From a bacterium (GTDB taxonomy: Bacteria; Hydrothermota; UBA3073; JACQXS01; JAGMCI01): a stretch of DNA of 64,000 nucleotides. Positions 411 to 32,297 of the stretch are shown here, one piece after another. Where the stretch lies: NCBI GenBank assembly GCA_030018315.1, contig JASEGA010000001.1, positions 12,673 to 76,672 of the forward strand, given 5' to 3'. A program made the translations under genes and the position numbers. Within the stretch, counting starts at the first letter, position 1. Each line of letters opens with the position of its first letter. The notes beneath the pieces are model-generated. The model did not search any database. It was given only the letters and a program-made list of their open reading frames with translations, and was not told the origin of the DNA.

Positions 411-438
411 GTAGGGGCGTATTGCAATACGCCCCTAC
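411..438. repeat. Perfect 28-bp palindrome GTAGGGGCGTATTGCAATACGCCCCTAC. It is the intergenic member of the GTAGGG...CCCTAC palindromic element family.
   Basis: Read directly. The arms gtaggggcgtattg and caatacgcccctac are exact reverse complements. The element lies between a TTGACA-like box (380-385) and the GT2 start at 462. Confidence 0.8.
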
Positions 439-461
439 ATTAAAGACGATATCTTTTCCAT

Positions 462-1319
462 ATGAAAGAGGAAATTTCTGTAATAATTGTGACCTGGAAT
501 TCAGGCGAATACATTGAAGGTTGTTTAAAAGCACTTGGTCTTGAGCCTGCCTCGCCGAGTCAAGGCGGGTATGAGATAATTCTTGTTGATAATCACTCAC
601 TTGATATAACAGTTGATTTAGTGAGAAAGAATTTTTTGGGCGTCCGTATAATTGAAAACTTCTCTAATGTTGGGCTGTCAAGGGCAATCAATCAAGGTGC
701 TAAAATATCAAATGGTAGATATCTGCTCATCCTTAACCCTGATGTTGTAGTTATGGAGGACACAGTTAAAAAGCTTTACCAATTTATGCAAGAAAGAGAA
801 GAAATTGGTGCTTGTGGACCCCGCTTTTTATGGCCTACAGGTAGAATTCAGCCATCTTGTCGTGAGTTTCCAAATTTTAGCAACTTATTTCTTGAATTTA
901 TAGGAATTGGAAGGATAATGAGATTTTCAAAGTGGAAGATGGGTTATTTCAATCACAATAGTGCGAGAGAAGTAGACCAGCCAGCAGGTTCATGTTTACT
1001 TGTTAGGAAAGAGATTTTTAATAAAGTAGGAGGAATGAATGAATCCTATCCTTTCTTTATGAATGATGTAGATTTATGTTACAAGATAAAAAGGATGGGC
1101 TATAAGCTACATTTTGTTCCAGAAGCAAATGTGATTCACTATTTAGGGGGGTCAACTCGTAAGGTACGACGAAAAATGATTCTTGAAGAACACTTAAGTA
1201 TATATAGATATCTAAGAGACCATTTCAACAATTATTTTTTAATAGCCCTATACGGCTTCTTACTTCTTATTAGCTCTTTTTATCGTATCCTTTTTAGTCT
1301 TATTTGGCATCATCGGTAA
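462..1319 (+). CDS. Glycosyltransferase family 2
   Basis: 285 aa. It carries the IIVTWNS..ILVDNHSLD and DxD-type motifs typical of GT2, and resembles the ORF at 38709-39578. Confidence 0.75.
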   Translation: MKEEISVIIVTWNSGEYIEGCLKALGLEPASPSQGGYEIILVDNHSLDITVDLVRKNFLGVRIIENFSNVGLSRAINQGAKISNGRYLLILNPDVVVMEDTVKKLYQFMQEREEIGACGPRFLWPTGRIQPSCREFPNFSNLFLEFIGIGRIMRFSKWKMGYFNHNSAREVDQPAGSCLLVRKEIFNKVGGMNESYPFFMNDVDLCYKIKRMGYKLHFVPEANVIHYLGGSTRKVRRKMILEEHLSIYRYLRDHFNNYFLIALYGFLLLISSFYRILFSLIWHHR

Positions 1320-1359
1320 TAACAAAATAAAAATAATAAGAATAACTACTTATTTTATC

Positions 1360-1388
1360 TTGACAATTGCTTAAATTTTTGTTATATT
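1360..1388 (+). promoter_or_regulatory. Sigma70-like promoter for tRNA-Val (TTGACA-17nt-TATATT)
   Basis: TTGACA at 1360-1365, a 17-nt spacer, then TATATT at 1383-1388. This places the transcription start a few nt before the tRNA at 1398. Confidence 0.55.
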
Positions 1389-1397
1389 TAAAAAAAA

Positions 1398-1471
1398 GGG
1401 CGGATAGCTCAGATGGTTAGAGCGTCGGTTTCACATACCGGAGGTCATGGGTTCGACTCCCTTTCCGCCCA
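1398..1471 (+). tRNA. tRNA-Val (anticodon CAC)
   Basis: Cloverleaf read by hand. Acceptor stem is gggcgga/tccgccc. Anticodon stem is tcggt/accgg (U-G closing pair) with 7-nt loop ttCACat. T-arm is GGTTCGACTCC. Confidence 0.8.
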
Positions 1472-1477
1472 TTTTAA

Positions 1478-2191
1478 GTGAAAGAAGAGCTAAAGACTCT
1501 CTGGAGGTTACAGAAGCTTGATACAGAAATTTCTAAATTAGAAGCACGTAAAAAGAATATTCCTCAAGAAATTCAGCAGTTAAATAAGAAGCTAAAAGCA
1601 AAGGAAAAAGAGCTCCAGAAGCAGAAAGAAACATTTCAAGAGTTTATCACACGTAGGAGGAATTTAGAACAAGACGCAGAGGAGTCAAAGGATAGGGTAA
1701 GGCGCTATAAAGCTCAACTATTGCAAGTTAAGACAAACAAAGAGTATCAGTCCATTTTACACGAGATAAGCACAGAGGAAGTTAAACTATCAGCTTACGA
1801 AGAGGAAATTATTGATGCTCTTACTCAGAGTGATGAACTATCTAAACAGATAGAAAATTTGAGTAAAGAGTTAGAAAAAGATAAAGATAAATTTTCAAAG
1901 TATGAAGAAAAACTACAAAAAGAGCTTTCTGAAGTAGAAAATGCTCTTCTTACAAAAAAGGATGAATATGAAAAGCTCACAAATAAGATTAACTCTGTAA
2001 TTCTTTCAAGATATCAGCAAATAAAAAGAAGTAGAGATGGAATTGGTGTAGTTGGAATATCGGAATCAACTTGTAAGGGCTGCAATGCTATCCTTCCTCC
2101 TCAATTTGTGGTTGAGGTAAGAAAAGGGAATAAGATATTAACTTGCGAACAATGTGGCAGGATTCTTATTTGGGAAGATGATGTGGATTAG
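1478..2191 (+). CDS. Coiled-coil protein with C-terminal C4 zinc ribbon (COG1579-like, putative nucleic-acid binding)
   Basis: 237 aa. A long heptad-rich coiled coil is followed by C4 Zn ribbon CKGC..x17..CEQC. Immediately downstream of a tRNA. Confidence 0.65.
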   Translation: MKEELKTLWRLQKLDTEISKLEARKKNIPQEIQQLNKKLKAKEKELQKQKETFQEFITRRRNLEQDAEESKDRVRRYKAQLLQVKTNKEYQSILHEISTEEVKLSAYEEEIIDALTQSDELSKQIENLSKELEKDKDKFSKYEEKLQKELSEVENALLTKKDEYEKLTNKINSVILSRYQQIKRSRDGIGVVGISESTCKGCNAILPPQFVVEVRKGNKILTCEQCGRILIWEDDVD

Positions 2192-4085
2192 TTTCCTTAT
2201 TCTAATCCCTTCGCTTAAGACTGTAGGTGATTACTTCTTCACTCATGGCGAGTATAAGAAAGCTGTAGAAATATATAATAGAGCTTATAGAGAAAAACCT
2301 TCCCCTGAGCTTAAGTTAAAAATTGGACTAAGTTTATACAGACTCGGTATTACTGCATTAAAAAAGGATAATTTTAATGAGGCTCTCTCCCAGTTTAAAT
2401 TAGGTGGAAATAAATATGGTATAGGGTTTGTGAATTACAAAGTAGGTAATAAAGAGAATGCGAAGAAAGTCTTCCACGACCTTAATGATTTTTATGCTTT
2501 GGGTGTAATCAGTTATCAAGAAAATGAGTTTAAAGAAGCCCTCCAGTATTTTAAGCTTGCCAATTCTCCTTATGGTATGGGAATATCTTTTTATAGACTC
2601 GGAGCTTATAAAGAGGCCTTAGATTATTTTAAAAAAGCAAACGATAATTTTTTAGCTGCCGAATGTTGTTATAAACTGAAAAAATTTAATGAAGCAGAAA
2701 GTTACTATCAAAAAGCGCTTCAAGAAACAAACTGGACAAGAGATGCATTGTATGGACTTGCATGGACCCATTATAAGTTAGGTAAGTTTAGCCTCTCAGC
2801 ACAGGAGTTTAAAAAATTTATAACCCAATATCCTAAAGACCCTTTAATACCTATTTCTCTCTATTATACAGCAAGAACTTTATTGAAGATTGGAGATTTA
2901 CAATCTGCGATTAAACATTTTAAAACACTTATCAATGAATATCCTGGCTCCGAGTTCATTGATGATTCTTATTATTGGATGGGTAAAGCATATTTTATCC
3001 AATCAGATTATACTGCCTGTATCAAACAACTCAACTTCCTTCTATCAAATTACCCGAACAGCAACCTTCGTTCCTACGCCTATTTGTTGATTGGTGATGT
3101 ATATTACAAGCAGAATGATTATAACTCTGCGATTAACTGGTACAAAAAGGTAAAAGGACCGTCAGATATACTTGACGACGCAAGATTTAAACTTGAAAAG
3201 TGTTATTTTGGGCTTGGTGAATATAGCTCAAGTTTAGATATTTTACACAATTTTATTCACAAGTATCCGAAGTCGCCTCGGTCACCAAAATTTGGGCTTG
3301 AACTTGCCCAGTATTGGGTTAAACAGAACAATTTTCAAAAAGCTATTGAATCGTATAACAATGTAATTTACAACTTTAGCTGGTCTTCATTAGTTGATGA
3401 AGCAAAACTTGGACTCGCTGATTGCTATTTTAGAATTGGAAAATATGATGCTGCTATAGAGACATATCGAGAGTTATTTAACACCTCTTTAGGAATGAAG
3501 GCACAATTTAGTCTTGCAAACACATACTTTTTGCTTGCTGAGTATGACCGAGCAATTCATGAATATGAAATCCTTATTAATGAGTTTCAAAATTCTGACT
3601 TTGCAAAAGATGCACAATATCAGATTGGCTTATCATATGAGCGACTTGAGAAGCCGAGGGAGGCGAGGCTTGCCTTTCAAAAATTTATAGAGAAGTATCA
3701 GAAAGATCCAAATTATTGGGATGCGGAGCTTAAACTATCAAAGACCTATAGGGATGAAGGTTTGATTGACGAATATCTTGAAGCCCTTCTCCATGTTGAA
3801 GCCAAAGGAGAGGGTAAACCAAAGCAGGAAGCTACTTTTTTGCTTGGTTCTTTGTATTTTGATAAAGAAGATTACAAGACTGCAAAAGAGTTTTATCTTA
3901 AAGCAGCTTCACAGTATGAGGACATTGATTCTAAATCAAAGTCGTTCATTTATGCGGCACGGTGTGCTGTAGCTTTAGGGAAAAAGGATGAAGCAATAGA
4001 GCTTTACAAGGCTGTACTCTCATTATTACCAAATCCAGCTTTAGAAGAGGAAGCAAAAAAAGGGATTAAACAACTCGGAGAGTAA
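2178..4085 (+). CDS. Tetratricopeptide-repeat protein with N-terminal membrane anchor
   Basis: Many TPR units (A/G, Y, A spacing, e.g. [26 protein letters not shown]). The in-frame ATG at 2178 avoids the overlap with the upstream ORF. Confidence 0.7.
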
Positions 4086-4087
4086 CT

Positions 4088-6472
4088 ATGAGGAAAGAAA
4101 TTATTCAAGTAGAGATTGAAGATGAAATGCAGCGGTCTTACCTTGATTATGCGATGAGCGTAATTGTTGGGAGAGCTCTTCCAGATGTTAGAGACGGTTT
4201 GAAGCCTGTACATCGTCGCATCCTCTACGCAATGTGGGAACTTGGGCTTACACATAATAGACCATTTAAGAAGTCAGCTGCTGTAGTAGGGGAAGTTCTT
4301 GGAAAATATCATCCGCATGGAGACATAGCTGTTTATGATGCCATGGTAAGGATGGTTCAACCATTCTCATTGAGATGTCCACTTATTCAGGGGCAAGGAA
4401 ATTTTGGCTCTGTAGATGGAGATGCTGCTGCAGCATATAGATACACAGAGGCAAGGTTATCTGAGATTGCCGAGTTTATGCTTATGGATATTGAAAAAGA
4501 AACCGTCCCATTGGTACCAAATTTTGATGGAAGACTAAAGGAGCCATTCGTGTTACCATCTAAGTTCCCAAATCTATTAGTGAATGGGAGCTCAGGAATT
4601 GCAGTTGGGATGGCAACCAATATTCCGCCACATAATTTAGGTGAAGTCGTAGACGCATTATGTGCATTAATAGATAAGCCGGATTTGGATGATTTTTCAT
4701 CTTATATAAAAGGGCCTGATTTCCCTACAGGTGGAGAAATAATAGGAACACGAGAGATAAGGAAAGCATACTTAACAGGGAGGGGCAAGCTTATTTTAAA
4801 AGCTAAAGTGCATACGGAAGAGACAAAGGAAGGTAAACAAGTTATCTATGTAACAGAGATTCCATATCAAGTAAACAAATCTGCGCTAATAGAACGGATT
4901 GCTAATCTTGTGAGATTAAAGAAATTAGAAAGTATATCAGATATAAGAGACGAGTCTGATAGAGAGGGGATAAGGATTGTTATAGAGCTCAAACGTGATG
5001 CTCAAGAGAGGGTAATTTTAAATAGGCTATTTAAACATACGCCATTACAGATAACTTATGGAATAGGACTTCTTGCCCTTCAAGATGGGGTACCAAAATT
5101 TTTGACCCTAAAAGACATACTTAAGGCGTTTCTCAGTCATCGATACGAAATAGTTAAGAAACGTACTGAATTTGACTTACGCCAGGCAGAAAAGAGAGCT
5201 CATATTCTTGAAGGGTTTAAAATTGCACTTTCACATATAGATAAAGTAGTTAAAATTATTAAGACATCAAAAAATGCTGAAAAAGCAAAAGAAAGATTAA
5301 TGAATAGTTTTAAGCTCAGTGATGTGCAATCACAAGCAATTTTGGATATGAAGCTATCTAGGCTTGTTGGACTTGAACGTGATAAAATTGAAGAAGAGTA
5401 TCTTGAGACGATAAAACTTAGAGAGAGGTTGAAAAGAATTCTTGCTACACCAAAAGGTGTAATGAGAGTAATACGAGACGAGCTCATTGAAATCAAGAAA
5501 AAATTTAACACCCCAAGAAGAACTAAGATAATTGAAGCAGAACAAAAAGAGCTTGAAATGAGAGATTTAATTCCAAATGAGCCTGTCTTAATTACTTTAA
5601 CTCAAAAAGGTTATATAAAATCTTCAAAAGCAGCCACTTACATGCGACAATATCGTGGCGGAATTGGAGCATCAGGGATAACACTTACTCCAGAAGATGA
5701 GGTAGCAAGAATTTTTGGTACTGAGACTCATTCTACTCTTGTATTTTTTACCAATACAGGAAGATGCTATTCTCTGAAGGCTTATGAGATTCCAGAGTGC
5801 GGAAGGGGGGCTCGTGGTAAGCCTCTTGTAAACTTGTTACAGCTAAGAGAAGGTGAGGGAGTAGTAGGCTGCTTACCTGTGAAAGAATTTAAAGGTATGA
5901 TTGTTTTAGCCACTAAGAAGGGTATGGTGAAGAAGTTGAAAGTTTCTGCACTTGAGCACATCAGAAGGACGGGTATAATTATTGCTACTTTAAGGAATGG
6001 TGACTCTATAATCTCGGGGATTCATGTAAATCCAAAAGATTATATTTTATTGATTACAAGAAAAGGTAAGGTTATCAGATTTAAAGAAGAGTTATTAAGA
6101 CCTCTATCACGAGTTTCACAGGGAGTGAGAGGTATAACACTTAGGGATAAGAATGAAGTTATAGGTGTAAAAGCTGTACCCGATAAGAAGCTGAGTTTAT
6201 TTTTTATAACATCCGATGGTTATGGAAAAAGGGTGCTGATATCAAAATTTAGACTCACCAACCGGCGTGGTTTAGGAGTAATTGGTGGTAAAGGAGAAAT
6301 AGTAGGCTGTGAAGTAGTAGATGACGATTCTGAAGTTATTATTATCACCCAAAAAGGTCAAACTTTAAGAACTAAAGTTCAAAATGTAAGAAAGATGGGA
6401 AGAGCTGCCAGGGGTGTAAGGCTGATAAGCTTAAGAGAAGGAGATAAGGTTACTGATCTTCATAAACTTTAA
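4088..6472 (+). CDS. gyrA: DNA gyrase subunit A
   Basis: 794 aa. The N-terminus [35 protein letters not shown] is canonical GyrA, followed by a C-terminal beta-pinwheel region. Confidence 0.95.
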
Positions 6473-6571
6473 TCCACAAACATTATAAATTTTGCATAAT
6501 TCAAAAAGGAGAAAAAATTGAAGAAAAGGGAAGAGATAGTCCATAGGTAAATAGTTACGTTATTTTAAAGC

Positions 6572-7351
6572 ATGCAGCGATTTATAGGAATTGACCTTGC
6601 ATGGTCATATAGGAACACATCGGGTATTTTTGCGCTTGAATGTAAAGACAATAAAATTTTTCAACTTACCTATAATAACTCTATTAAAAAAGATGATGAA
6701 ATTTTAGATTTTATTCAAGCGAATAAGGGCAAAGGAGGCTGTCTTGTAGCTATTGATGCGCCACTTGTAGTTCCAAATGTTAAAGGTACGAGACCAGTAG
6801 ATATTGAGATTACAAAGAGGTTTCATTCTCAAGAAGCTGGCACTTTACCTGCAAATAGAAATATACTTAAGAATAATAAAGGCGAGGTGCGAGGTGAGGT
6901 ACTTGTAGAGAAATTAGAAAAAATTGGATGTGAGCATAGCTTTGAAATTAAAAAACACGATAGAGGATTTAAGGTATTTGAAGTTTTTCCGCATCCAGCA
7001 ATGGTGGTTATTTTTGATTTATCTACTATTCTTAAATATAAAGCAAAAAAAGGGAGGACACTTAATTTTCGACTTAAAGAGTTAGACCGCTATAAGACTT
7101 ATCTCTCTAATCTTCAAAAATTTGTCCCCCCATTAGCTCAACCTCCACCTTTACAGGATTGTAGGGACACGGCATGCCGTGTTCCTACAAAATGTTACGA
7201 AGATTTGTTAGATGCCCTTTTCTGTGCTTGGCTTGCATCCTATTTCTGGTATTGGGGACCGCAAGGATTTGAAGTAGTTGGTGATATGCAAAATGGATAT
7301 ATTGTGTTGCCCAAAATGGCGGGATTCCCCGCCTGTCATTGCGACCCCTGA
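6572..7351 (+). CDS. DUF429-family protein (RNase H-like fold). The 3' end is altered by inserted repeats.
   Basis: The N-terminus FIGIDLAW is DUF429-like. The ORF contains the 28-bp palindrome at 7161-7188 in frame, and its last codons run into the family-B repeat at about 7325. Confidence 0.5.
   Translation: MQRFIGIDLAWSYRNTSGIFALECKDNKIFQLTYNNSIKKDDEILDFIQANKGKGGCLVAIDAPLVVPNVKGTRPVDIEITKRFHSQEAGTLPANRNILKNNKGEVRGEVLVEKLEKIGCEHSFEIKKHDRGFKVFEVFPHPAMVVIFDLSTILKYKAKKGRTLNFRLKELDRYKTYLSNLQKFVPPLAQPPPLQDCRDTACRVPTKCYEDLLDALFCAWLASYFWYWGPQGFEVVGDMQNGYIVLPKMAGFPACHCDP
7161..7188. repeat. GTAGGGAC...GTTCCTAC 28-bp palindromic element inserted in frame within the DUF429 CDS (one arm mismatch)
   Basis: gtagggacacggcatgccgtgttcctac. 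Encodes CRDTACRVPT in the host frame. Confidence 0.8.
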
Positions 7352-7400
7352 GATTCCTCGCCAGTCATTGCGAGGAGCAAAGCGACGAAGCAATCTCTCA
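7325..7400 (-). repeat. Family-B dispersed repeat (core GATTGCTTCG..CGCAATGAC), reverse orientation, with a partial second copy
   Basis: The reverse complement of 7340-7400 reads gattgcttcgtcgctttgctcctcgcaatgactggcgagg. An additional gtcattgcgac copy lies at 7334-7346. Confidence 0.65.
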
Positions 7401-7473
7401 ACAGGCTCAGAACAAGCTTGAAAAATTTATGATTTTCTTATAAAAACTGTGATATATCCTAATACTAACAATC

Positions 7474-8267: not shown

Positions 8268-9586
8268 ATGCAAAAGTATAAGTCTCAGGGTCAACTTTTG
8301 GATGATTGGGGTGAGTTGTTGAAGTTGAAAAGGGAGTCTTGGCGAATTAAGGATAAGGATAAAGATAAGGCAATGGAATTGGAGTATGAAATAACGAAAA
8401 GAATTAGAGCTTCGTTATTAAAAAATGTAAGTTTTCCAATTCTTGACATATTCCGAAAATATAAACTGAATGTGGATGAGCAATCTTTATTTATAACTAT
8501 ATTAACAAATACAATCACTGGAGACCACCTGTCAACTGTGCGCCAATTTCTCTTAATGCTATATCCTAAGCCCAGCGATGTTATAGATAAAATAAATTAT
8601 CTGTTTCCTTCTGGCAAGTTAATAAAAAACAAGCTTCTCGTCCTCAATGAAGAACGCTTTCCTTTTAGTAGAGATAATAGTACAATCTTAGATGCGTGTG
8701 TTGGTATCCATCCCGATGTGTTACAACAAATTTTGCATTCCCCGAAGCCACGACACAAACAAAATAAAGTGCCCTCTATATTTGAAGTTCGCAAGCCCAA
8801 AATTGATATGTCACATGTAGTCTTAAAGGAGCACCAAAAAGCTGAGCTATTGGAGATAATTAAATATTTAAATAATTACAAGTTAATCTGTAAGACCACG
8901 AATCTGGCTCAAACTTTTGAGAAAGGTAGAGGTTTTATTCTCCTTTTTTCAGGCCCTCCAGGTACTGGTAAAACCTTATCTGCCGAAGCAATAGCAAACG
9001 AGTTAAATAGGAAGTTATATACAATAAATTTTGCCCAACTTGAAAGTAAATGGGTAGGTGATACTCTGAAAAGAATATTAAAGAAGTTTTTAAGACAGTA
9101 AAAACTACTTCTGCTGTTCTCCTTATAGACGAGGCTGACACAATACTTACGAGGCGTGTCTCTGCTGATAGACATACAGATGTGTCTTATAATAGAAATG
9201 TGTTAGTTCTCATGCAAGAAATAGAGAATTTTGAAGGCATCTTAATTCTAACTACAAATCGTGTTGATATACTTGATAATGCACTTGACAGGCGAATTGC
9301 ATTTAAGATAGAATTTGATTTACCGGGTATTGCTGAGAGGGAAAAAATCTGGCAAGTCCTGGTACCTGATAAGGTGGTAATTGACACAGGGGTTGATTTC
9401 TCTGTTCTTGCTAAACGCTTTCCTTTTGCTGGTGGTAACATAAAGAATGCAGTATTTTGGGCAATTATGAAGGCAGGTGAACGCTCACCTACCTCACCAA
9501 TACTTAAAATGGAAGACTTACTAAGTGCAGGTGAAAGAGAATATAGTAAGATGAATAAAAATTCAAAAAGCAGGATAGGATTTTGA
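8268..9586 (+). pseudogene. AAA+ ATPase (classic clade, single AAA domain with about 220-aa unknown N-terminal domain). Frameshift near 9095-9105, between Walker A and Walker B.
   Basis: ORF 8268-9101 ends ...FSGPPGTGKTLSAEAIANELN..KKFLRQ*. The downstream frame continues VLLIDEADTIL...TTNRVDILDNALDRRIAFKIEF (Walker B, sensor, Arg finger). The break is in a T5 run. Confidence 0.65.
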
Positions 9587-9628
9587 TGTTGACAAAATTG
9601 ACCCAATTATTATGGGTAAGGAGGGAGT

Positions 9629-9919
9629 ATGAACAAAGATGAATGGGTAGAAGAGGCAATTAAAATTGCCAAAAGGACTCACTTAAAAATATGGGAGATA
9701 GAAGACTGTGGCAAAGAGGAGGGCAAACTAATAAGATTTGCTTCTCCTGATGACCATGAAAAAGAAGTTGGTGTCTATCTATGGTACAAAAAAGTAGAGT
9801 GCTGGCCAGAGTTTGCGAGGGAGTTGACTCCTTTAGGTTGGGATTGGGCTCCAAAGTCTATTTCACAGCGTTTGAATGATATTAATGCAAGAATTGGCGA
9901 ACTTATGAAGGCAATATAG
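9629..9919 (+). CDS. Hypothetical protein (96 aa), island gene
   Basis: ORF with an AGGAGG-like RBS (ggtaaggaggg) 8 nt upstream. No recognisable domain. Confidence 0.35.
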   Translation: MNKDEWVEEAIKIAKRTHLKIWEIEDCGKEEGKLIRFASPDDHEKEVGVYLWYKKVECWPEFARELTPLGWDWAPKSISQRLNDINARIGELMKAI

Positions 9920-9939
9920 AAAAAGCCACAGGATACAGG

Positions 9940-10233
9940 TTGGATGCAGGATATGATGGATTTGTAAAGGATATAGATACTCCTAAGGAGGCGATTAAAG
10001 AAGTAAAATTGAGAGTGAAGATGAAGACGAAGGGGAGGTATAACAGGGGGCAAGAGATTGAAAAGTTTTTATTAGAAACTTATGGTAGTGTATGTAATGA
10101 GATAAGATGTTATATGGAGGATACCTTTCGAGAACTTTCAGGAGGCCAGTGTGGTTTGGATGAACAGGAGCATGAAGGAGTTGAATTTAGAGTATATCAT
10201 AAAATACCGACAGATTTGAAGAAGAAGATATAA
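9940..10233 (+). CDS. Hypothetical protein (97 aa)
   Basis: ORF only. Confidence 0.3.
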   Translation: MDAGYDGFVKDIDTPKEAIKEVKLRVKMKTKGRYNRGQEIEKFLLETYGSVCNEIRCYMEDTFRELSGGQCGLDEQEHEGVEFRVYHKIPTDLKKKI

Positions 10234-10347
10234 GGAGGAGAGGAAAATAAAAGTAATAGATTTAGATAAAAGTAAAAGTTGACATGTAAGATTTAAGATA
10301 TAGAATTAAACAACAGTTAGTCTTACACTAAATGGCTAAAGGAGGGG

Positions 10348-10806
10348 ATGATGAAATTATTTATTGCGAATGTTGGAGTGAACACAAGTCATGTAAGTAA
10401 AGGTCTCCGGAGTCCGATATTCTCAGATAAGACCTTTGAGTTTATTCCTATTCCAGAGGAAGAAGAAAGGAAAAAAGTCTTATTTTCTCCTCGATACTGT
10501 GAAATTCGGTGTTTCAACAAGCCAAATCTAGCAATTAGCGAGTATTTATGTCCTGAAAGGCGTTCAGATATTGCTCATAATGATCCAGAGTTTAATGATC
10601 CAGAGTTTAATGATCCAGAGTTCAAGTCTTTTACTTATGGTGATATTTTTTCTCCACGAGCCGCTAATCTCAAGGAAATACAACCAGATGACCTTCTTTT
10701 CTTTCTTGCAAGGTTGTGGTTATATAAAGATGGATTTACTAATGAGAGCGATCTTTACTTCATCGGTTACTTCACGGTAGAAAAAAGATTTGCTCCAAAG
10801 ACATAA
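10348..10806 (+). CDS. Hypothetical protein (152 aa). The N-terminus is faintly reminiscent of Nmad3-type nucleotide-modification-associated domains. Contains an NDPEF x3 tandem repeat.
   Basis: RBS aaaggagggg upstream. N-terminus MMKLFIANVGVNTSHVSKGLRSPIF..FEFIPIPEE. The Nmad3 resemblance is from memory only. Confidence 0.4.
   Translation: MMKLFIANVGVNTSHVSKGLRSPIFSDKTFEFIPIPEEEERKKVLFSPRYCEIRCFNKPNLAISEYLCPERRSDIAHNDPEFNDPEFNDPEFKSFTYGDIFSPRAANLKEIQPDDLLFFLARLWLYKDGFTNESDLYFIGYFTVEKRFAPKT
10582..10626 (+). repeat. In-frame 15-bp tandem repeat x3 (gatccagagtttaat) encoding NDPEFNDPEFNDPEF
   Basis: Read directly. The third unit has 2 substitutions. Confidence 0.85.
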
Positions 10807-11217
10807 TACTACCAGAACCTCAGGATAATAGGATAAAACAGAATGCTCATTTTCGCTGTCTCCAAGAAAATATAGAGACAGATTTTTTCATTATAATAGG
10901 GAAATCAGATGCCTCTTACAGATTTAAAAAAGCGTTAAAAGTCAGTTCTAATATAGTGAAAATTCTGTATAACGCAAAAGAATATGACCAAGAGAATGAT
11001 ATTTTTATAGGAAAAGATGGTAAGATATTACGAAATAAGACAAATCCAAGGCCTCGCAGCCTCCAGCGTTTCCCCCAAGTGACAAGAACAGTTCAATCCT
11101 TCTTGGACTCTTCTAAAAATAGAGAAGGTGAAAATATAAAAAAATTAATGGGAATAGTAAAGGATTGTATTTAAAAGTGATAGAAGTTCTAAGGCAAAGA
11201 GGTAAGGTAACTAATGC

Positions 11218-11517
11218 CTGATTTTTGAGTATCATTGTGAGGAGTGTAAGCGTATTTTAGGTAAGCGGTTTGAGGGAGTTCATAAGTGGTTGGATGAATT
11301 GATGTTTGATAAAAGTATTCCATTATTGTACAGGACGCGGCACCGTAAATTTAGGCATCACAAGGAAGGGATTGAGCAAGTTAGAAAGATGTGGGGTGAT
11401 GAGGCAGCGAAGGCGGCTGAAATACATATAAGAACAGACTTAAAAAGTGACGGCTGGCCAGAACATAATCCAATCTCTTTAAATAAGGAACACTTTGAGA
11501 GAAGTGGGTTGTGGTGA
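11218..11517 (+). CDS. Hypothetical Cys/His-rich small protein (about 100 aa; start codon uncertain, ATG at 11290 or upstream CTG/ATT)
   Basis: The open frame from 11215 reads ..FEYHCEECKRILGKRFEGVHKWLDELMFDKSIPLLYRTRHRKFRHHKEG... Confidence 0.3.
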   Translation: MIFEYHCEECKRILGKRFEGVHKWLDELMFDKSIPLLYRTRHRKFRHHKEGIEQVRKMWGDEAAKAAEIHIRTDLKSDGWPEHNPISLNKEHFERSGLW

Positions 11518-11526
11518 GGAGGTAAT

Positions 11527-12627
11527 ATGAAAGGAATAGCAGTTAAGGATTTCAAAAACAAAAAGGGGGTTTCAAAGATTCTTGAAGAAAACTCAAAGTT
11601 TTGGGAAACAGACATTGTGGAAGATGTATCTAAGAATAAACTTGTTCATATTTATAGAGTATATTTTGACAAGGAAGGTAAACCGATAGTAGTTAAAACC
11701 TATGATAAAAAAGGTAGAAGCTTGAGTCGTATTGGCATTGGGATAGAAGAGTCAAATACTCCCACAACTTCAAAAGGAAGAGTAGTATACATATATCGTA
11801 AGAAGAACAAAAGAGATAAATTAGAGGATGGGATATATTATAATTTTATAGTGCATAACAAGAATGGCAAAGAATTAGAACGTGCAGAGTATTACGGGGA
11901 AAAGCTATATAAGAAATGTAAAAGAGATAGGAAGGGAAAGAAGATTGAATTAAGTTACGGCTATGATATAAATGGAACACTTGAAAACACATGTAAAAAC
12001 TATTACGACAAAAATGAGAATATAATAAAGCAAGAGTCTTCCTTTAAAGGATTATATGGTTGGGACATTGGAGAGCATAGAATATTCTATTATGACAAGA
12101 ACTCAAGGCTTATAAGGACAGAAATATTTTCAAATGGTAAACTTAGGAGTGTAGAACATCGCAAATATTCTAAAAAAGGAAACTTAATAGAGATAAAATC
12201 TAAGTGGTTAAAAGAATCTCATGCTACGATTTATCTCTGGGATGAAGAGAGCAATCTTATTCAACAAGAACTTATATATTCTAATTCCATTCTGCTCTGG
12301 AAAATAAATTATGTATACGACCAGTCGAAAAGGTTAGTTAAAAAGGACTGGTTTAATTCTGAAGGCAGTCTTAAAATATGGGAAACATATGAGTATAATG
12401 AGAATAACAGAATCGCTAAGGAGGAAAAACTGAATTCCGACCACGAAGGTGATAGATGCACTACATACGAATATGATGAGAAAGGCAGGAAAGTTAGAGA
12501 AAATTGGCTTATGAAGTTTCCTGTTGATCCTACCTGCTCTGAACAGACTAATGTGTATAAATATGATGAAAGAGGGAGATTAGTTGAAGAATTATGGGAG
12601 AGTAGAAATAACTTTCCTTTAAAATAG
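11527..12627 (+). CDS. YD-repeat / MORN-like repeat protein (366 aa, no signal peptide)
   Basis: Repeated xYxYDxxGRxV..E.W units: TTYEYDEKGRKVRENW, NVYKYDERGRLVEELWE, IFYYDKNSRLIRTEIF, YGYDINGTLEN. Confidence 0.5.
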   Translation: MKGIAVKDFKNKKGVSKILEENSKFWETDIVEDVSKNKLVHIYRVYFDKEGKPIVVKTYDKKGRSLSRIGIGIEESNTPTTSKGRVVYIYRKKNKRDKLEDGIYYNFIVHNKNGKELERAEYYGEKLYKKCKRDRKGKKIELSYGYDINGTLENTCKNYYDKNENIIKQESSFKGLYGWDIGEHRIFYYDKNSRLIRTEIFSNGKLRSVEHRKYSKKGNLIEIKSKWLKESHATIYLWDEESNLIQQELIYSNSILLWKINYVYDQSKRLVKKDWFNSEGSLKIWETYEYNENNRIAKEEKLNSDHEGDRCTTYEYDEKGRKVRENWLMKFPVDPTCSEQTNVYKYDERGRLVEELWESRNNFPLK

Positions 12628-12738
12628 AATGAAAGGAATTACAGTTATGAATATATATCAGATGAGGAAATAGATTTAATTGAAAAAGATGTAGGTATAG
12701 TTGAACAAATTTTTGACAAAACTTGGTTAGAGTGAATT

Positions 12739-12810
12739 GCCGGTGTAACTCAGTGGTAGAGTAGCTGTTTTGTAAACAGCAGGTCGTCAGTTCAATTCTG
12801 ACTACCGGCT
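12739..12810 (+). tRNA. tRNA-Thr (anticodon UGU)
   Basis: Acceptor stem is gccggtg/taccggc. Anticodon stem is gctgt/acagc with loop ttTGTaa. Short variable loop, T-arm GGTCGTCAGTTCAATTCTGAC. Confidence 0.75.
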
Positions 12811-12954
12811 TAGACAATAAGGAGGTGAAAGATGGGATGCAAAGTGACTAAGAATTTGGGATTACCAAGTATTGGATGCGTCAGGTCTAAAGAAGAACAA
12901 TGCAAAGATGGATATAGAAAAGATGCATGTTCATTCCCTTGATATTACAAATCC

Positions 12955-13200
12955 TTGCAACCAGAAGAAAATGATGATAATTGGATAAAAGATTGGAAAA
13001 AGGAGTTACTTGACAAACTCCAAAATTTTTACAAGAATGGTAAAATTAAGGGGCGGTGCAACCCACACGTACCTGAGATTGAAAAACAGATTGGGGAAAT
13101 TTTAGAAAAAGCAGGTAAAAAGAAAGAAGGATTTCCTGAATTAGAAAAGGAAGGGAAAAAGAGTATCCCAATCTTTCTACACGAACAGGAGAAAATATAA
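12955..13200 (+). CDS. Hypothetical Lys/Glu-rich small protein (81 aa)
   Basis: ORF only; low complexity. Confidence 0.2.
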   Translation: MQPEENDDNWIKDWKKELLDKLQNFYKNGKIKGRCNPHVPEIEKQIGEILEKAGKKKEGFPELEKEGKKSIPIFLHEQEKI

Positions 13201-13542
13201 TGTTGGAGTAGATTGCTTGGCTCGGACAAAAGATAATAAATTCTTGGTTATGGTTGAATTTAAAGCGTATTTTACAGATACAAACTCCATCCGTAGTGCA
13301 GTACTCCATAGAATGTTTCTTAAGGAATTGGGTGAAAAGGAAAAGATGTGTCCTTATAAAAAGATTCTATATTTACTATGTAAGTATCGATTGGAGAGAT
13401 TTTTTGAACGATTTATAGAAAGAGGAAGAGAAGAAAAAAGGCAAAAAGAAAGTGAGTCTTCCATTGATGAAATGGGCAGTTGATAAAAAGTATATAGATG
13501 GCTTCTATGGACTCAAACAAATACAAAAACTGCTAAACGACA

Positions 13543-14235
13543 TTGGGAGAAAGTACAAAAATGAGAAATAAGAATGGAAAAGAAGTGATTGAAGAAACTA
13601 AAGGGCTTTGGGATGTTTTTCATATACCGAGAGAAGAAATAAATAAGCGTACTGATGAAGCGATGAAAAATCCACCATTCAAAAAAGAAATTGAGCAATT
13701 GCTAAAGGAAGTACCATTATCAAAAGTAAATAGGGCAAAAACTTTATGGGATAAATGGTACAAAGAGTATATAAAAAATGAAGAATTGGAGCAAATTTAT
13801 CGTGCATTTTGCTCAAGTCTTAAGACAAGACACTCTTACTGGAGATTTAAGTCAGCTTCTCTCTTGTTCTTGTATATTTACGGGTATGTATCGGATGAAG
13901 AATTAGACTTAATTGAAAAGGATATAGATAACAGCGGGCAAATTTTTGATAAACATAGAGAAGACCTACAAGCAGTTAAAGAAATAAATGATACTTTTAA
14001 AGATGCAACCTTTTGGAGCCATATTCCTATGAATATATCTTGTTTAGCAATTGGTGCAAGTATTGCATTTACAAGGGCAGTGAAAGTGATTTTGGATGTG
14101 ATAGAGAGATTACACAAAAATAAGGACTATAGAGAAGGTCATTATTATGGTGGAGTAATTGATCGGGATGAAGCTATATTACTCCAGGGCTACCCATATG
14201 ATTGGCTCAAAAAAGGAGGGAAAGAGGCTTTGTGA
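13543..14235 (+). CDS. Hypothetical protein (230 aa)
   Basis: ORF with no recognisable motif. Last gene of the putative island. Confidence 0.35.
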   Translation: MGESTKMRNKNGKEVIEETKGLWDVFHIPREEINKRTDEAMKNPPFKKEIEQLLKEVPLSKVNRAKTLWDKWYKEYIKNEELEQIYRAFCSSLKTRHSYWRFKSASLLFLYIYGYVSDEELDLIEKDIDNSGQIFDKHREDLQAVKEINDTFKDATFWSHIPMNISCLAIGASIAFTRAVKVILDVIERLHKNKDYREGHYYGGVIDRDEAILLQGYPYDWLKKGGKEAL

Positions 14236-14273
14236 AAACAGAAAGAAAAAGAAAGCAAATAAAGAGTTAAAAT

Positions 14274-14325
14274 GAGGGACGAGGGGCGCTACGAATGTTT
14301 ATCTGGCTGTTCCTCTCGTTCCCTC
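14274..14325. other. Strong imperfect hairpin (13-bp stem gagggacgagggg / cctctcgttccctc, 25-nt loop) downstream of the island
   Basis: Paired by hand with one bulge and one G-U. There is no U-tract on the plus strand. Confidence 0.4.
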
Positions 14326-14462
14326 TGATAAAGTAAACGCAATCTATCAGTGTAGTTGATTATCACTCTAAATCCAATTATATCAGGTAACTCTCTGCCA
14401 GCCCAAAATGGCTTTTAACTTGACAAAGTCGGTGGTTTGACATATTTTATCTTACAAACACT

Positions 14463-19431: not shown

Positions 19432-19440
19432 ATTTCCAAA

Positions 19441-22932: not shown

Positions 22933-22978
22933 TCTTTACCATTTTTGCATTTTAACATGTATTTTTGATATTTAATTT

Positions 22979-24190: not shown

Positions 24191-24200
24191 ATTCTAAATT

Positions 24201-24599: not shown

Positions 24600-24626
24600 A
24601 TTTAGCATTTAGAATTAAGAATTTTT

Positions 24627-25373: not shown

Positions 25374-25390
25374 TTAGCGAGGCTAAAGCC

Positions 25391-28174: not shown

Positions 28175-28244
28175 GTGTAGCTCAATTGGTTAGAGCACTG
28201 GACTGTGGATCCAGTTGTTGGGGGTTCGAGTCCCCTCACTCACC
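28170..28244 (+). tRNA. tRNA-His (anticodon GUG) with G-1. Overlaps the stop codon of the upstream CDS.
   Basis: The extra 5' G pairs with C73. Anticodon stem is ctgga/tccag with loop ctGTGga. T-arm is GGTTCGAGTCC. Confidence 0.8.
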
Positions 28245-28289
28245 CAGTTTTTTCTTGACAATGAATAAAAATGGGGTAATATTTTAGAA

Positions 28290-28955: not shown

Positions 28956-29349
28956 TGAAGAAATTATCTCTCAAATTGGGAGTGGGTTTTTAATCCTTAT
29001 TGGAGTAGAAAAGGGTGACAAGCCTCAATCTGCTAAATACTTGGCTCATAAATGTGCTAATTTACGTATCTTTGAAGATTCATATGGAAAAATGAACCTC
29101 TCTCTAAAGGAGATAAAAGGGGGTGAGGTTCTTGTAATTTCTCAATTTACTTTATGTGCTGACTGTAAAAAGGGATTAAGACCAAGTTTTGATTATGCTT
29201 CTTCTCCAGATCAAGCAATCGCCCTTTATAAAAAGTTTATAGAATTCCTTCGTTCTGAAGGCGTTACAGTTAAAGAGGGTGTGTTCGGTGAGAGAATGTC
29301 TATCTCACTTATAAACGAGGGTCCGGTTACCTTTATTTTATCAACATAA
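28909..29349 (+). CDS. dtd: D-aminoacyl-tRNA deacylase
   Basis: MRVVVQRVKRASCEI..GFLILIGVEKGD..SQFTL..GPVTF matches Dtd throughout. Confidence 0.85.
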   Translation: MRVVVQRVKRASCEINEEIISQIGSGFLILIGVEKGDKPQSAKYLAHKCANLRIFEDSYGKMNLSLKEIKGGEVLVISQFTLCADCKKGLRPSFDYASSPDQAIALYKKFIEFLRSEGVTVKEGVFGERMSISLINEGPVTFILST

Positions 29350-29351
29350 AT

Positions 29352-29388
29352 TGTAGATTGCTTTGCTGTCGCTCGCAATGACAGAGGG
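29352..29388 (+). repeat. Family-B dispersed repeat (tgtagattgctttgctgtcgctcgcaatgacag) immediately 3' of dtd
   Basis: Read directly. Near-identical to the copy at 30231. Confidence 0.75.
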
Positions 29389-29394
29389 AGGGCA

Positions 29395-30216
29395 ATGATC
29401 CAGTCTATGACTGGCTATGGGGAGGCTACCTATAGCCACATTCATTGTGAGCTAAAGGCTCTAAATCATAGATTTTTTGATGCAACTCTCAGCATTCCTA
29501 CAAGTCTCTCTTGTTATGAATTTAAAATAATAACTTTATTAAAAGAGCGTATCAAAAGGGGGGCAGTCTTTTTAAAAATTTTTGTAGAGGAGACTCATAT
29601 TAAGCTTGACATTAAACGAGCTAAGGCGTATTATGATTTTATTAATAATTTAAAACTCTCTCTTGGGTTAGAGGAGAGCTCTATCCCAATTGACCTTTTT
29701 CTCAATTTTACAAAACAAGAAGCTCCTCCGTGGAGTGTAGTTAAAAAGGTTATAAACTCTTGTATTGACTGTTTAATTGAGTCAAGATTAGAGGAGGGTA
29801 AGAAATTGTTGTCAGATATTGAAACACATTTTAAAAAGATAAATAAATTGCTTCAAGTAATCGATCAGCGTGTCCCAAAACAAAAAGAGAGAAGGGAACA
29901 GTTTCTGAAAAGGATAACTCCTCTTATAAAAGATGGACTTGATGAGCACAAAATTGACGAAGAGTTTGCTTTCTTACTTATGAAAGAGGATTTCAACGAA
30001 GAGCAATCAAGATTAAAAGCCCATTTTAAGAAGTTCAAAAACATACTGTATAGTAAGAGACCTTCTGGCAAATATCTTGTGTTTCTCATTCAGGAGATGC
30101 AACGTGAGGCAAACACTATTTCTGCTAAAGTCAAGGATGTTGGTGTTTCTCAAGTTGTAGTAGAACTCAAAAAAGAACTTGAAGACTTAAGAGAGCAGGC
30201 TGAAAATGTATCATAG
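29395..30216 (+). CDS. yicC: YicC-family stress-induced protein
   Basis: MIQSMTGYGEA N-terminus and a DUF1732 C-terminus. Confidence 0.75.
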   Translation: MIQSMTGYGEATYSHIHCELKALNHRFFDATLSIPTSLSCYEFKIITLLKERIKRGAVFLKIFVEETHIKLDIKRAKAYYDFINNLKLSLGLEESSIPIDLFLNFTKQEAPPWSVVKKVINSCIDCLIESRLEEGKKLLSDIETHFKKINKLLQVIDQRVPKQKERREQFLKRITPLIKDGLDEHKIDEEFAFLLMKEDFNEEQSRLKAHFKKFKNILYSKRPSGKYLVFLIQEMQREANTISAKVKDVGVSQVVVELKKELEDLREQAENVS

Positions 30217-30230
30217 ATTTAGACTGAATG

Positions 30231-30266
30231 TAGATTGCTTTGCTGTCGCTCGCAATGACAGTGGGG
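30231..30266 (+). repeat. Family-B dispersed repeat immediately 3' of yicC
   Basis: atgtagattgctttgctgtcgctcgcaatgacagtgggg. Confidence 0.75.
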
Positions 30267-30330
30267 TAACTTATTTCGTTTTGGGCAACCACAATACCTG
30301 CCCCTACAATCAGTTCACATTAATGATAAA

Positions 30331-30942
30331 ATGTTAGGTAAAGTTACCCCATTTCCAATAGTTCTTACTGCACCCTCAGGCACAGGAAAGACAACGATAT
30401 GCAGGTGTATACTTAAAAAGAGTCCTCAAATTAGATATTCTATATCTGCTACTACTCGCAAGCCGAGGGATGGTGAAGTTGACAAGAAGGACTACTATTT
30501 TATTTCTAAGTCTACATTTAAGGATTGGATAAAAAGGGGCAAATTTTATGAGTGGGCTCAAGTTTACGGTGACCTTTACGGCACTCCAAAAGAGCCATTG
30601 CTCCAATATTTAAATACTGGTCATCATGTGCTGCTTACTTTAGATATTCAAGGTGCAAGAAGCATAAAGATGGCCTATCCGCTGTCAGTTTGTATTTTTA
30701 TTTTGCCACCCTCTATATCCGAACTTAAAGTGAGATTACTTAAGCGTGATAAGGATTCGTTCAAAGTAATTGGTGAGAGATTAAAAGCAGCTACAGCAGA
30801 ATTACATTACGCAAGTGAATTTGATTATGTTGTTGTAAATGAAAGTCTTGGGACAACAGTGAACAAGATTATGGCAATAATAGTAGCAGAGGAATGTAGC
30901 TTTAAGAGATTATATGAAAAAGCAGAAAAAAGACAAAAATAA
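30331..30942 (+). CDS. gmk: Guanylate kinase
   Basis: P-loop SGTGKTT and the GMP-binding motifs. Confidence 0.85.
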   Translation: MLGKVTPFPIVLTAPSGTGKTTICRCILKKSPQIRYSISATTRKPRDGEVDKKDYYFISKSTFKDWIKRGKFYEWAQVYGDLYGTPKEPLLQYLNTGHHVLLTLDIQGARSIKMAYPLSVCIFILPPSISELKVRLLKRDKDSFKVIGERLKAATAELHYASEFDYVVVNESLGTTVNKIMAIIVAEECSFKRLYEKAEKRQK

Positions 30943-31159
30943 AAAAGATAGAGCTTATTATCTTCCAATAGAAGATATTTGGAACAGATACGGCAATAAA
31001 TATGAGGCAATAACTAAGATAGTTGAAGAGGTGAAGCGGGTTTTAGAAATAAAAAGCGAAGGTGATAGTGATATAAGTGATATAGTTGTTAAAGTACTTA
31101 AAGATTTAGTTAAAAGTGAGACAAGAGATGAAAAAAATAGTTCTGGGAGTAACAGGTAG
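30914..31159 (+). CDS. rpoZ: DNA-directed RNA polymerase subunit omega (probable)
   Basis: Sits in the conserved gmk-rpoZ-coaBC position. Small basic protein with an N.YE...KIVEEVKR motif. Confidence 0.5.
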   Translation: MKKQKKDKNKKDRAYYLPIEDIWNRYGNKYEAITKIVEEVKRVLEIKSEGDSDISDIVVKVLKDLVKSETRDEKNSSGSNR

Positions 31160-32297
31160 TATAGCAGCTTATAAAGCATTAGAAATTGTGCGTTTATTTA
31201 AGAAAAAGGGTGAAGATATATTCTGTGTATTAACTCGGGAGGCAACAAAGTTTGTCTCCCCTCTTTCATTTTATACGCTTTCTGGCAACGAAGTTATATT
31301 TGATTTTTTTGAGTTAAAGAGGACACCAGTCCATGTTGAGCTTGCAACTCTTGATGCTATACTTGTTGCTCCTGCAACTTATAACTTAATAGGTAAAGTA
31401 GCGTCAGGAATAGCTGATGATGCGCTCTCCTGTATAATTGCTGATACTCGGTCACCTGTCATTTTTGCGCCATGCATGGATACAGGGATGTGGGAAAATT
31501 CAATACTTCAAGATAATATAAAGAAATTGAAATCACTTGGCTACCACTTTATAGAGCCAGTTATTGGTGAACTTTCTACCTTACAGATTGGGAAAGGTAG
31601 GTTTCCAACTCCTGAATTCATTGTAGAAGAGACTTATCGTATTCTTTACTCATCTAATGAACTGAATGGCAAGAAGATTCTTGTAACAGCAGGTAGGACA
31701 GAAGAAGACATTGACCCTGTGAGATGTATAACTAATAGGTCATCTGGTATAATGGGATATGCACTTGCATATGAGGCAAGGAGGCGGGGCGGCGATGTCA
31801 CCCTTATTTCAGGTCCATCAAGTAGGGACACGCCATGGCGTGTCCCTACATCTGGGGTGAAACTTGTAAATGTGAGAACTACTAATGAACTTGAGTTAGA
31901 GGTTTTATCACGAGCCTCTGCTTCTGACATACTTATAATGGCGGCTGCAGTCGCAGATTATACACCTGTTCAACAATTTGATAAAAAAGTGAAAAATGAG
32001 TATATGGATATAAAATTAAAGCGGACGCACGATATTCTCAAGCTTGTAAGGAAGAAGAATAAGGGGCTATTTATTATTGGCTTTTCTTTAGAAACCGATG
32101 AGCATATAAAATGGGCAAAAACTAAGCTTAGAGATAAAGCTCTCAATCTCATAGTTTCTAATGATGTAGCTTCAATTGGCTCAAATGAGGCTCGAGTTAG
32201 TCTTATCAATTGCAATTTAAAAATAAAAAAATTGCCACTACTTCCAAAGTCTGAAGTTGCAAAGAAGATAATTGATTATGTGGTAGCCAGTATTTGA
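31116..32297 (+). CDS. coaBC: Bifunctional phosphopantothenoylcysteine decarboxylase / phosphopantothenate-cysteine ligase. Carries an in-frame palindromic element insert.
   Basis: Flavoprotein N-terminus KIVLGVTGSIAAYKA and a DFP C-terminal domain. The insert SRDTPWRVPTS lies at 31822-31849. Confidence 0.9.
   Translation: MRQEMKKIVLGVTGSIAAYKALEIVRLFKKKGEDIFCVLTREATKFVSPLSFYTLSGNEVIFDFFELKRTPVHVELATLDAILVAPATYNLIGKVASGIADDALSCIIADTRSPVIFAPCMDTGMWENSILQDNIKKLKSLGYHFIEPVIGELSTLQIGKGRFPTPEFIVEETYRILYSSNELNGKKILVTAGRTEEDIDPVRCITNRSSGIMGYALAYEARRRGGDVTLISGPSSRDTPWRVPTSGVKLVNVRTTNELELEVLSRASASDILIMAAAVADYTPVQQFDKKVKNEYMDIKLKRTHDILKLVRKKNKGLFIIGFSLETDEHIKWAKTKLRDKALNLIVSNDVASIGSNEARVSLINCNLKIKKLPLLPKSEVAKKIIDYVVASI
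31822..31849. repeat. Perfect 28-bp palindrome GTAGGGACACGCCATGGCGTGTCCCTAC inserted in frame in coaBC
   Basis: Read directly; the centre is CCATGG. Confidence 0.9.

Follow-up and report, generated by a model that had tools for sequence, protein, structure and literature searches.

Palindromic 28-bp repeats within genes of a WOR-3-like bacterium: probable double-foot REPs of the RayT transposase system

Five palindromes in a 64-kb window

A 64-kb stretch of contig JASEGA010000001.1 (hereafter the window), whose proteins have WOR-3/Stahlbacteria homologs, contains five 28-bp palindromes of the form GTAGGG...CCCTAC. They are designated here by their first positions as copies 411, 7161, 15091, 31822 and 41720 (Table 1). 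Four of them lie in frame inside genes, and copy 411 is intergenic. We consider it very probable that all five are 'double-foot' repetitive extragenic palindromes (REPs) of TnpA-REP subclass 2.4 (RAYT group 4), scattered in trans by a REP-associated tyrosine transposase (RayT). An earlier, sequence-only reading of this DNA had reported four copies of one palindrome. All four are found where it placed them, but copy 41720 was missed and the five interiors belong to four subfamilies rather than one. Copy 411 has only its length and its GTAGGG/CCCTAC ends in common with the others and thus represents a separate subfamily, while copy 7161 is a widespread variant with a GCATGC centre and not a CCATGG-type element with three mismatches. 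Every subfamily is found again in unrelated genomes or metagenome contigs, where the flanks are unique.

Table 1. Palindromes, host genes and other features of the window.
Feature	Position	Strand	Remarks
Palindrome GTAGGGGCGTATTGCAATACGCCCCTAC	411-438	.	Perfect; intergenic; subfamily GCGTATTG/CAATACGC
Palindrome GTAGGGACACGGCATGCCGTGTTCCTAC	7161-7188	.	ACACG arms, GCATGC centre, one arm mismatch; in frame in DUF429 gene
Palindrome with ACACGCC arms	15091-15118	.	Centre CCGTGG, one central base off; in frame in QMD71_00170
Palindrome GTAGGGACACGCCATGGCGTGTCCCTAC	31822-31849	.	Perfect, CCATGG centre; in frame in coaBC
Palindrome GTAGGGGTTTGATTAATCAAACCCCTAC	41720-41747	.	Perfect; subfamily GTTTGATT/AATCAAAC; in frame in radical-SAM gene
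Sigma-70-like promoter match TTGACA-16-TATGAT	380-407	+	11/12 positions, consensus match only; 3 nt upstream of copy 411
Glycosyltransferase ORF	462-1319		Copy 411 lies 23 nt upstream
DUF429 protein MDI6839257.1	6572-7351	+	Host of copy 7161
616-aa GNDxY-repeat protein QMD71_00170, MDI6839269.1	14463-16313	+	No Pfam hit; host of copy 15091
coaBC, MDI6839286.1	31116-32297	+	NCBI start 31128; host of copy 31822
Radical SAM protein MDI6839296.1	40975-42075	+	Host of copy 41720
Motif GTCATTGCGA, two occurrences	7335-7395		Overlaps DUF429 stop codon
Repeat-protein cluster	10000-16300		RHS-repeat ORF 11527-12627; GNDxY-repeat ORF 14463-16313
83-nt intergenic repeat, two copies	56101-56183; 56965-57047		Each ends just within a GTG-start ORF (56177-56965; 57041-58015)
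G+C-rich imperfect palindromes	55744-55772; 56647-56676		In adjacent ORFs 55344-56090 and 56177-56965

The palindromes are far in excess of chance. The specific pattern GTAGGGACACGCCNNGGCGTGTCCCTAC, with up to three mismatches allowed, matches copies 7161, 15091 and 31822 in the window (chance expectation 0.00), and the looser pattern GTAGGG-N(10-26)-CCCTAC matches copies 411, 15091, 31822 and 41720 (0.01). When all inverted repeats of the 64 kb are ranked the five palindromes take the top five places, and no decayed copies are seen in the same scan. In folding calculations for single-stranded DNA (ssDNA), each copy forms a stem of 12-14 bp with a 4-nt loop (-12.8 to -15.3 kcal/mol, z of -6 to -8.5). 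All five begin with GTAG at the 5' end and finish with CTAC at the 3' end, and these two feet pair together. The base of the stem that follows the foot is GGG/CCC in four of the five; in copy 7161 it is GGG/TCC, a single mismatch.

Several trivial sources of such repeats were considered. An independent Logan assembly (run SRR23186779) is identical to the window over 411-7393, which includes copies 411 and 7161, and its first base is the first base of copy 411; the palindromes are therefore not an assembly artefact, and an adaptor origin is ruled out by the same identity. CRISPR repeats are ruled out as well, since the copies are single, lie 7-17 kb apart and form no regularly spaced array. Rfam, at gathering thresholds, identifies five tRNAs in the window and nothing at the palindromes, and a literature search for the exact palindrome sequences returned chance primer matches only.

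Host genes and encoded peptides

The reading phase is xGT AGG ... CCT ACA in each of the four coding copies. Copy 7161 encodes CRDTACRVPT (residues 197-206 of the DUF429 protein), copy 15091 encodes GRDTPWRVPT (residues 210-219 of QMD71_00170), copy 31822 encodes SRDTPWRVPT (residues 232-241 of CoaBC) and copy 41720 encodes CRGLINQTPT (residues 249-258 of the radical-SAM protein); for the last, xGT AGG is the sole stop-free phase. The suggestion that the CoaBC peptide might form a surface loop was followed up in an AlphaFold2 model of the protein (mean pLDDT, the predicted local distance difference test score, 88.9). The model assigns residues 232-241 to a loop flanked by strands 223-228 and 245-248, and this REP-encoded peptide has a pLDDT of ~55 that falls below 50 at residues 237-239. 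As for the intergenic copy, its hairpin may constitute the 5' end of the glycosyltransferase mRNA if the promoter-like match upstream is real.

Acquisition of the coding copies

Comparison with orthologs provides evidence that the palindromes in coaBC and the radical-SAM gene have been acquired. First, 24 CoaBC orthologs (up to 69% identity) all have a loop of equal length, and the window protein exceeds them by five residues, reading SGPS-SRDTPWRVPT-SGV where the orthologs read SGPS-ALTPP-YGV; alignments to solved CoaBC and CoaB chains agree with this comparison. Second, the radical-SAM protein is exactly five residues longer than its 10 closest orthologs (GCRGLINQTPTIND versus GYH-----LDSIDN). 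The alignment check proposed with the sequence-only reading thus finds the palindrome-encoded residues in none of the 24 CoaBC and none of the 23 radical-SAM orthologs. Third, a syntenic WOR-3 relative, GCA_023129325.1 (locus L125; loci collected for comparison are numbered with the prefix L), has both orthologs and not a single such palindrome in 21 kb. At the codon level, 27 nt of the window coaBC stand in place of 12 nt in this relative and 30 nt of the radical-SAM gene in place of 15 nt, and the codons of the relative differ from those of the window at both palindrome sites. Because the orthologs lack the encoded peptide, these comparisons indicate that the two coding copies are acquired and not ancestral.

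The remaining two host genes are less informative. Homologs of the DUF429 protein share at most 48% identity with it and have a variable loop of similar length, so that the net gain is ~0; they are too distant to decide between insertion and replacement. The 616-aa protein QMD71_00170 has no homolog among the collected comparison loci, and searches of PDB sequences with the radical-SAM and DUF429 proteins gave no match.

It could be argued that the palindromes are ancestral or convergent coding sequence, in which the peptide is selected and the palindrome is incidental, given that three window genes are read in one phase and encode the similar peptides (R)DT(P/A)(W/C)RVPT. For coaBC and the radical-SAM gene this is refuted by the ortholog alignments, including the different codons of the syntenic relative at both sites. 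Moreover, identical DNA is elsewhere intergenic or read in another phase, and the chance expectation is close to zero, and we regard an ancestral origin of the family as having a negligible probability. The earlier proposal of a mobile palindrome family is instead borne out, both by the orthologs without the peptide and by identical 28-mers at unrelated loci in many phyla.

Relatives in other genomes and metagenomes

GTDB genomes, one for each species, were scanned with the pattern GTAGGRACACG-N6-CGTGTYCCTAC, which identified at least 120 loci, with 123 copies among the matches listed. More than 15 phyla are represented among these matches. The taxa that carry this ACACG family include Chloroflexi, Planctomycetota, Bacteroidota (including Ignavibacteria and Rhodothermales), Cyanobacteria, Firmicutes, Thermodesulfobacteriota, Gammaproteobacteria, Acidobacteriota, Gemmatimonadota, Patescibacteria, WOR-3, Stahlbacteria, Poribacteria and others, and cultured isolates such as Longimonas halophila are found among them. 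Longimonas, Ruminococcus and Flavobacterium filum are carriers of these REPs for which many close genomes exist. The copies have unique flanks, and their central 6 nt are mostly palindromic and characteristic of each genome. Length is strongly conserved in the genome-scan loci (28 bp in 139 GTAG...CTAC palindromes, 29 bp in 4 and 30 bp in 7), which also contain further interior types. Doublets ~47-48 bp apart occur in related loci, and 14 of the 123 copies listed are nested in the middle of a larger palindrome of unrelated sequence, where ~0.5 would be expected. The 28-mer of copy 411 has an identical counterpart in a Brocadiaceae metagenome-assembled genome (MAG; L010). Clustering of the open reading frames (ORFs) within 1.5 kb of the 123 copies listed gave no recurrent gene, and the idea that GIY-YIG genes accompany the palindromes was dropped on this ground.

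The interiors of copies 411 and 41720 were covered by a 1024-fold degenerate pattern in a metagenome scan, which identified at least 120 loci. Among the 126 matches listed, 94 are the exact 411 sequence, 9 are the exact 41720 sequence and ~115 are perfect palindromes. Most of the matches other than these two exact sequences are perfect palindromes altered on both arms, changes that amount to covariation favouring self-pairing.

Of the 123 copies listed from the genome scan, about one fifth lie inside long ORFs, where the phase GTA GGG (18 copies) outnumbers xGT AGG (7 copies); copies inside RayT genes are likewise read as GTA GGG. The common phase that had been noted for the coding copies therefore holds for all four in the window but is no rule of the family, and a universal reading-phase rule is ruled out. 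Genes with several in-frame copies are common; a Chloroflexi MAG, for instance, has five palindromes in a single 995-codon ORF. In IMG/VR, four of 2.9 million viral contigs (L246-L249) contain an ACACG-type 28-mer, one of them twice, and phages are thus not obvious carriers of that type.

Two related loci exhibit tandem arrays of half-REPs beside a full REP, with a period of 18 bp in L122 (10289-10330) and of 15 bp in L095 (3928-3990), the latter array entering an assembly gap of Ns. These arrays suggest slippage or abortive events at the hairpin.

Association with RayT genes

The ORFs of the collected loci were probed with IS200 and Escherichia coli YafM sequences, approximate queries used as probes only. 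ORFs in three loci (L018, L120 and L082) were matched, and Pfam assigns Y1_Tnp to these ORFs, above the cut-off only in L082. In L018 and L120 the palindromes lie within the ORF, directly after the HUH motif (MPNHVHGIIEL..VGTSHGMSL..VGTRHGVSL..NQFGKP). A search with the L018 protein yielded 6795 homologs, several of which are labelled 'REP element-mobilizing transposase RayT' by JGI, and in NCBIfam the RayT proteins match a single family, REP-associated tyrosine transposase, with scores under the equivalog cut-off. Among the best 120 of the 6795 homologs, 91 have one or more palindrome-encoded VG.....[STPA]L units, and in these 120 the spacing between the HUH motif and QFGKP ranges from 17 to 100 residues. 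RayT proteins encoded beside or around the 28-mers have the motifs NHVH, WQ and YIINNP.

Identical 28-mers are physically associated with RayT genes of other genomes. The RayT gene of L122 contains GTAGGGACACGCCATGGCGTGTCCCTAC, exactly the 28-mer of the coaBC copy, and related perfect palindromes are present in L123 and L124. With a RayT profile, ORFs that contain a palindrome or lie within 300 bp of one were detected in L018, L120 and 8 of the 120 metagenome loci listed, which had been picked by DNA pattern alone.

The surroundings of some of these genes are of interest in themselves. In two Bacteroidota loci (L122, 7142-15387; L123, 8401-15984) the RayT-like gene belongs to a type I restriction-modification operon, with hsdM on one side and hsdS/hsdR on the other, and the operon of L123 includes a second Y1_Tnp gene. 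In L124 (8800-10680), the full RayT gene has just upstream of it two truncated copies, called as 134-aa ORFs (9007-9411 and 9494-9898), and one REP pair occurs four times over 8805-10355 with a spacing of ~490-510 bp.

The palindromes could alternatively be functional duplex sites, recognized by a dimeric regulator, by a tyrosine recombinase (with the 11-6-11 layout of dif) or by a restriction-modification enzyme and maintained by selection; a DNA-binding or restriction-modification site had been among the earlier suggestions. Such sites would fit the perfect two-fold symmetry and the length of 28 bp, which is that of dif, as well as the RayT-like genes inside type I operons of two other genomes and the position of copy 411 just downstream of a promoter-like match. 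However, four of the five copies lie in unrelated coding loops, flanks are unique, and the interiors differ through compensatory changes that keep self-pairing, which points to a hairpin and not to a sequence-specific duplex site. The central 6 bp are palindromic too, a symmetry that a recombinase core does not need. RayT is the sole recurrent neighbour gene found, and identical 28-mers extend over more than 15 phyla. With palindromic centres, arms that vary with compensation and no recurrent recombinase neighbour, a dif/Xer-type site is ruled out, and duplex sites in general are a very improbable explanation.

Comparison with known repeat families

The elements of the window belong to a class that has already been described. 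Quentin et al. (BMC Genomics 2018, 19:475; PMC6006769) described TnpA-REP subclass 2.4 (in the scheme of Bertels et al., RAYT group 4), with proteins of 194 aa mean length that carry the motifs NH[IFV]H, WQ and YIxNNP and occur in Cyanobacteria, Bacteroidetes and scattered phyla. The corresponding REPs are of two types, long REPs in which the stem starts with three G-C pairs and 'double foot' REPs with 5' GT[AG]G and 3' C[TC]AC; REPs are also found within tnpAREP genes with the frame kept, and it was noted that a self-complementary unit could arise from an inverted dimer by central deletion (PMC6006769). The window copies have the same GTAG and CTAC feet, three G-C pairs and long paired stem, and the RayT proteins next to or around identical 28-mers in other genomes carry the NH[IFV]H, WQ and YIxNNP motifs. 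The window differs from this description in lacking a cognate RayT, in coming from a WOR-3/Stahlbacteria-like lineage without cultured members, in the intragenic position of four of its five copies and in junctions that resemble a replacement of 12-15 nt and not a plain insertion.

GTAG-tagged REPs were surveyed by Di Nocera et al. (BMC Genomics 2013, 14:522; PMC3733652), including the SMAGs and the intragenic REPs of Opitutus terrae. They occur in frame within coding regions of several species, among them genes for replication, repair and tRNA metabolism, reach high copy numbers, form clusters and can be inserted into other palindromes (PMC3733652). The family described here resembles them in having GTAG beside a short G+C-rich stem-loop, in its in-frame genic copies and in its nesting within other palindromes. 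In the GTAG-tagged REPs, however, only one end carries GTAG, as an unpaired tail, whereas in the window family it pairs with CTAC, so that the unit is its own reverse complement and its orientation is undefined. REPINs (Bertels and Rainey 2011; PMC3116915) are similarly non-autonomous and thought to be mobilized in trans by a single-copy RAYT, and the doublets in related loci recall them, but a REPIN consists of two inverted REPs and a spacer while the window copies are single self-complementary units.

The subterminal hairpins of IS200/IS605 and PATE elements are also ssDNA hairpins recognized by a Y1 HUH transposase without target duplication. They differ in being imperfect, in standing at the ends of a longer element and in being cleaved at a guide-defined tetranucleotide, and no insertion sequence body is present at the window palindromes.

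The Rickettsia palindromic element RPE-1 is ~100-150 bp long and restricted to Rickettsia. The likeness to Rickettsia palindromic elements (RPEs) drawn in the sequence-only reading is apt in that both are palindromic repeats tolerated in frame within ORFs, where they add a peptide in a surface region. It does not extend to a new analogue of the RPEs: the window unit is 28 bp long and GTAG-tagged, resides in a WOR-3-like MAG, has no sequence relation to them and corresponds to the described double-foot REPs (PMC6006769, PMC3733652). Two Rickettsia families, RPE-4 and RPE-6, have themselves been classed as REPs, tagged with CGTC and not with GTAG (PMC3733652). The window elements are thus RPE-like in behaviour and are not RPEs.

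Junctions and mode of arrival

The earlier account of in-frame insertion of the palindrome, with the addition of ~10 residues, does not survive the comparison with orthologs. An insertion of 28 bp cannot by itself keep the reading frame, and the net change is +15 nt, or five residues, at both well-anchored junctions (coaBC and the radical-SAM gene) and ~0 in the DUF429 gene. At both anchored junctions the ortholog and the palindrome-bearing sequence have GT or T in common on the left side and CA on the right, and the replaced host sequence partially resembles a REP arm. Genes of other genomes behave similarly: hsdM of a Bacteroidota MAG (L122), which carries two degenerate palindromes in frame, shows net gains of 6 and 9 residues, and pheT of a Patescibacteria MAG, which carries three in frame, shows gains of 0, 4 and 6 to 11 residues when compared with distant structures. 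In the closest comparisons the gain is always below the full 10 residues. These junctions hint that an arriving REP costs the host gene some nucleotides, which is to be taken as a lead and not as a result.

Such junctions also bear on whether RayT is involved at all. The palindromes might have arisen through template-switch or fold-back repair, or as the footprint of another transposon, in which case their overlap with RayT genes would be secondary and due to tolerant loops of RayT. A net gain of about one arm in both anchored cases, replaced host sequence partly like a REP arm, perfect symmetry that continues into the centre although the loop of a hairpin need not pair, the existence of tandem half-site arrays and a window free of RayT genes would all suit this explanation. 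Local sequence cannot, however, produce identical 28-mers at hundreds of unrelated sites and in unrelated phyla. In addition, ~4-5% of the pattern-sampled copies lie in or next to a RayT gene, which fills ~0.02% of a genome, and the GTAG foot is the known recognition element of TnpA-REP (PMC3479197, PMC6006769). An origin independent of RayT is consequently improbable in our estimation.

Proposed mechanism and its difficulties

Under the preferred interpretation, double-foot REPs mobilized by RayT, the unit is the self-complementary 28-bp sequence, in which a GTAG foot leads into a 12-14-bp stem whose lowest three pairs are G-C and is mirrored by a CTAC foot. The hairpin would form on ssDNA and serve as the substrate of the REP-associated tyrosine (HUH/Y1) transposase, which would nick and rejoin ssDNA beside the GTAG foot and so spread copies in trans over the genome. 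As the genome is densely coding, most landings would fall inside genes, and a copy would survive only if the joint keeps the frame, the phase that reads TAG is avoided and the surface loop is tolerant. This presupposes that the genome from which the window derives has, or once had, a RayT and that this enzyme catalysed these events, presumably on ssDNA by analogy with E. coli TnpA-REP and IS200/IS605.

Several points weigh against this interpretation. Neither the sequence probes nor the RayT family profile detects a RayT/Y1 ORF in the 64-kb window. The junctions, as set out above, are not those that plain insertion of 28 bp would leave. Four interior subfamilies occur together in one 64-kb stretch, which would call for several RayTs or for an enzyme that reads little beyond foot and stem. 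REPs are usually lineage-specific, and identical 28-mers in more than 15 phyla imply either frequent horizontal transfer or strong constraint; carriage of REPs inside the RayT ORF would ease their horizontal spread. Finally, we know of no case in which a subclass 2.4 RayT acts on a double-foot REP.

One way to accommodate the junctions is that REPs arrive by a replacement reaction instead of an insertion, with a perfect, presumably recent REP of 27-30 nt supplanting 12-15 nt of host sequence. The anchored junctions suggest this as a possibility, albeit a doubtful one. RayT might swap a short stretch between two nearby ssDNA nicks ('cut and replace'), or template switching, guided by microhomology at GT and CA, might copy the hairpin into the site.

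Other repeats in the window

Additional repeats are present in the window (Table 1). The two copies of an 83-nt intergenic repeat are 99% identical, and each contains the interleaved inverted repeats AATTATGAATT/AATTCATAATT and AATGCTAAATT/AATTTAGCATT, which confer pseudoknot-like potential; with its copies ending just inside GTG-start ORFs, the repeat could be a cis-regulatory RNA. The two G+C-rich imperfect palindromes nearby have a common core, GGGACAGTCCC, and are placed outside the REP family because they lack a GTAG foot. The motif GTCATTGCGA occurs twice at the end of the DUF429 gene, its second occurrence running on as ...GGAGCAAAGCGACGAAGCAATCTC, and the end of the Logan contig at 7393 falls in this repeat, which suggests another short repeat family; no further good copy of the motif is found in the window. 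The repeat-protein cluster has an unusually high GC skew (0.29-0.31) and a high AT skew.

Implications

The palindromes extend the little-studied subclass 2.4 'double-foot' REP/RAYT class to an uncultured WOR-3-like lineage and reveal identical 28-mers common to very distant phyla. They also provide clean cases of hairpins tolerated in essential enzymes, namely CoaBC in the window and PheT in a Patescibacteria MAG. For annotation, the family accounts for recurrent peptides of the VGTRHGVSL and RDTPWRVPT types in metagenomic proteins and for some contig breaks. If the replacement junctions are not general, the feature is an ordinary repeat family. If they are general, they bear on how HUH transposases integrate REPs, a poorly understood step, and should the replacement reaction prove true, REPs in frame within RayT would be a self-contained unit that moves between phyla and edits protein loops.

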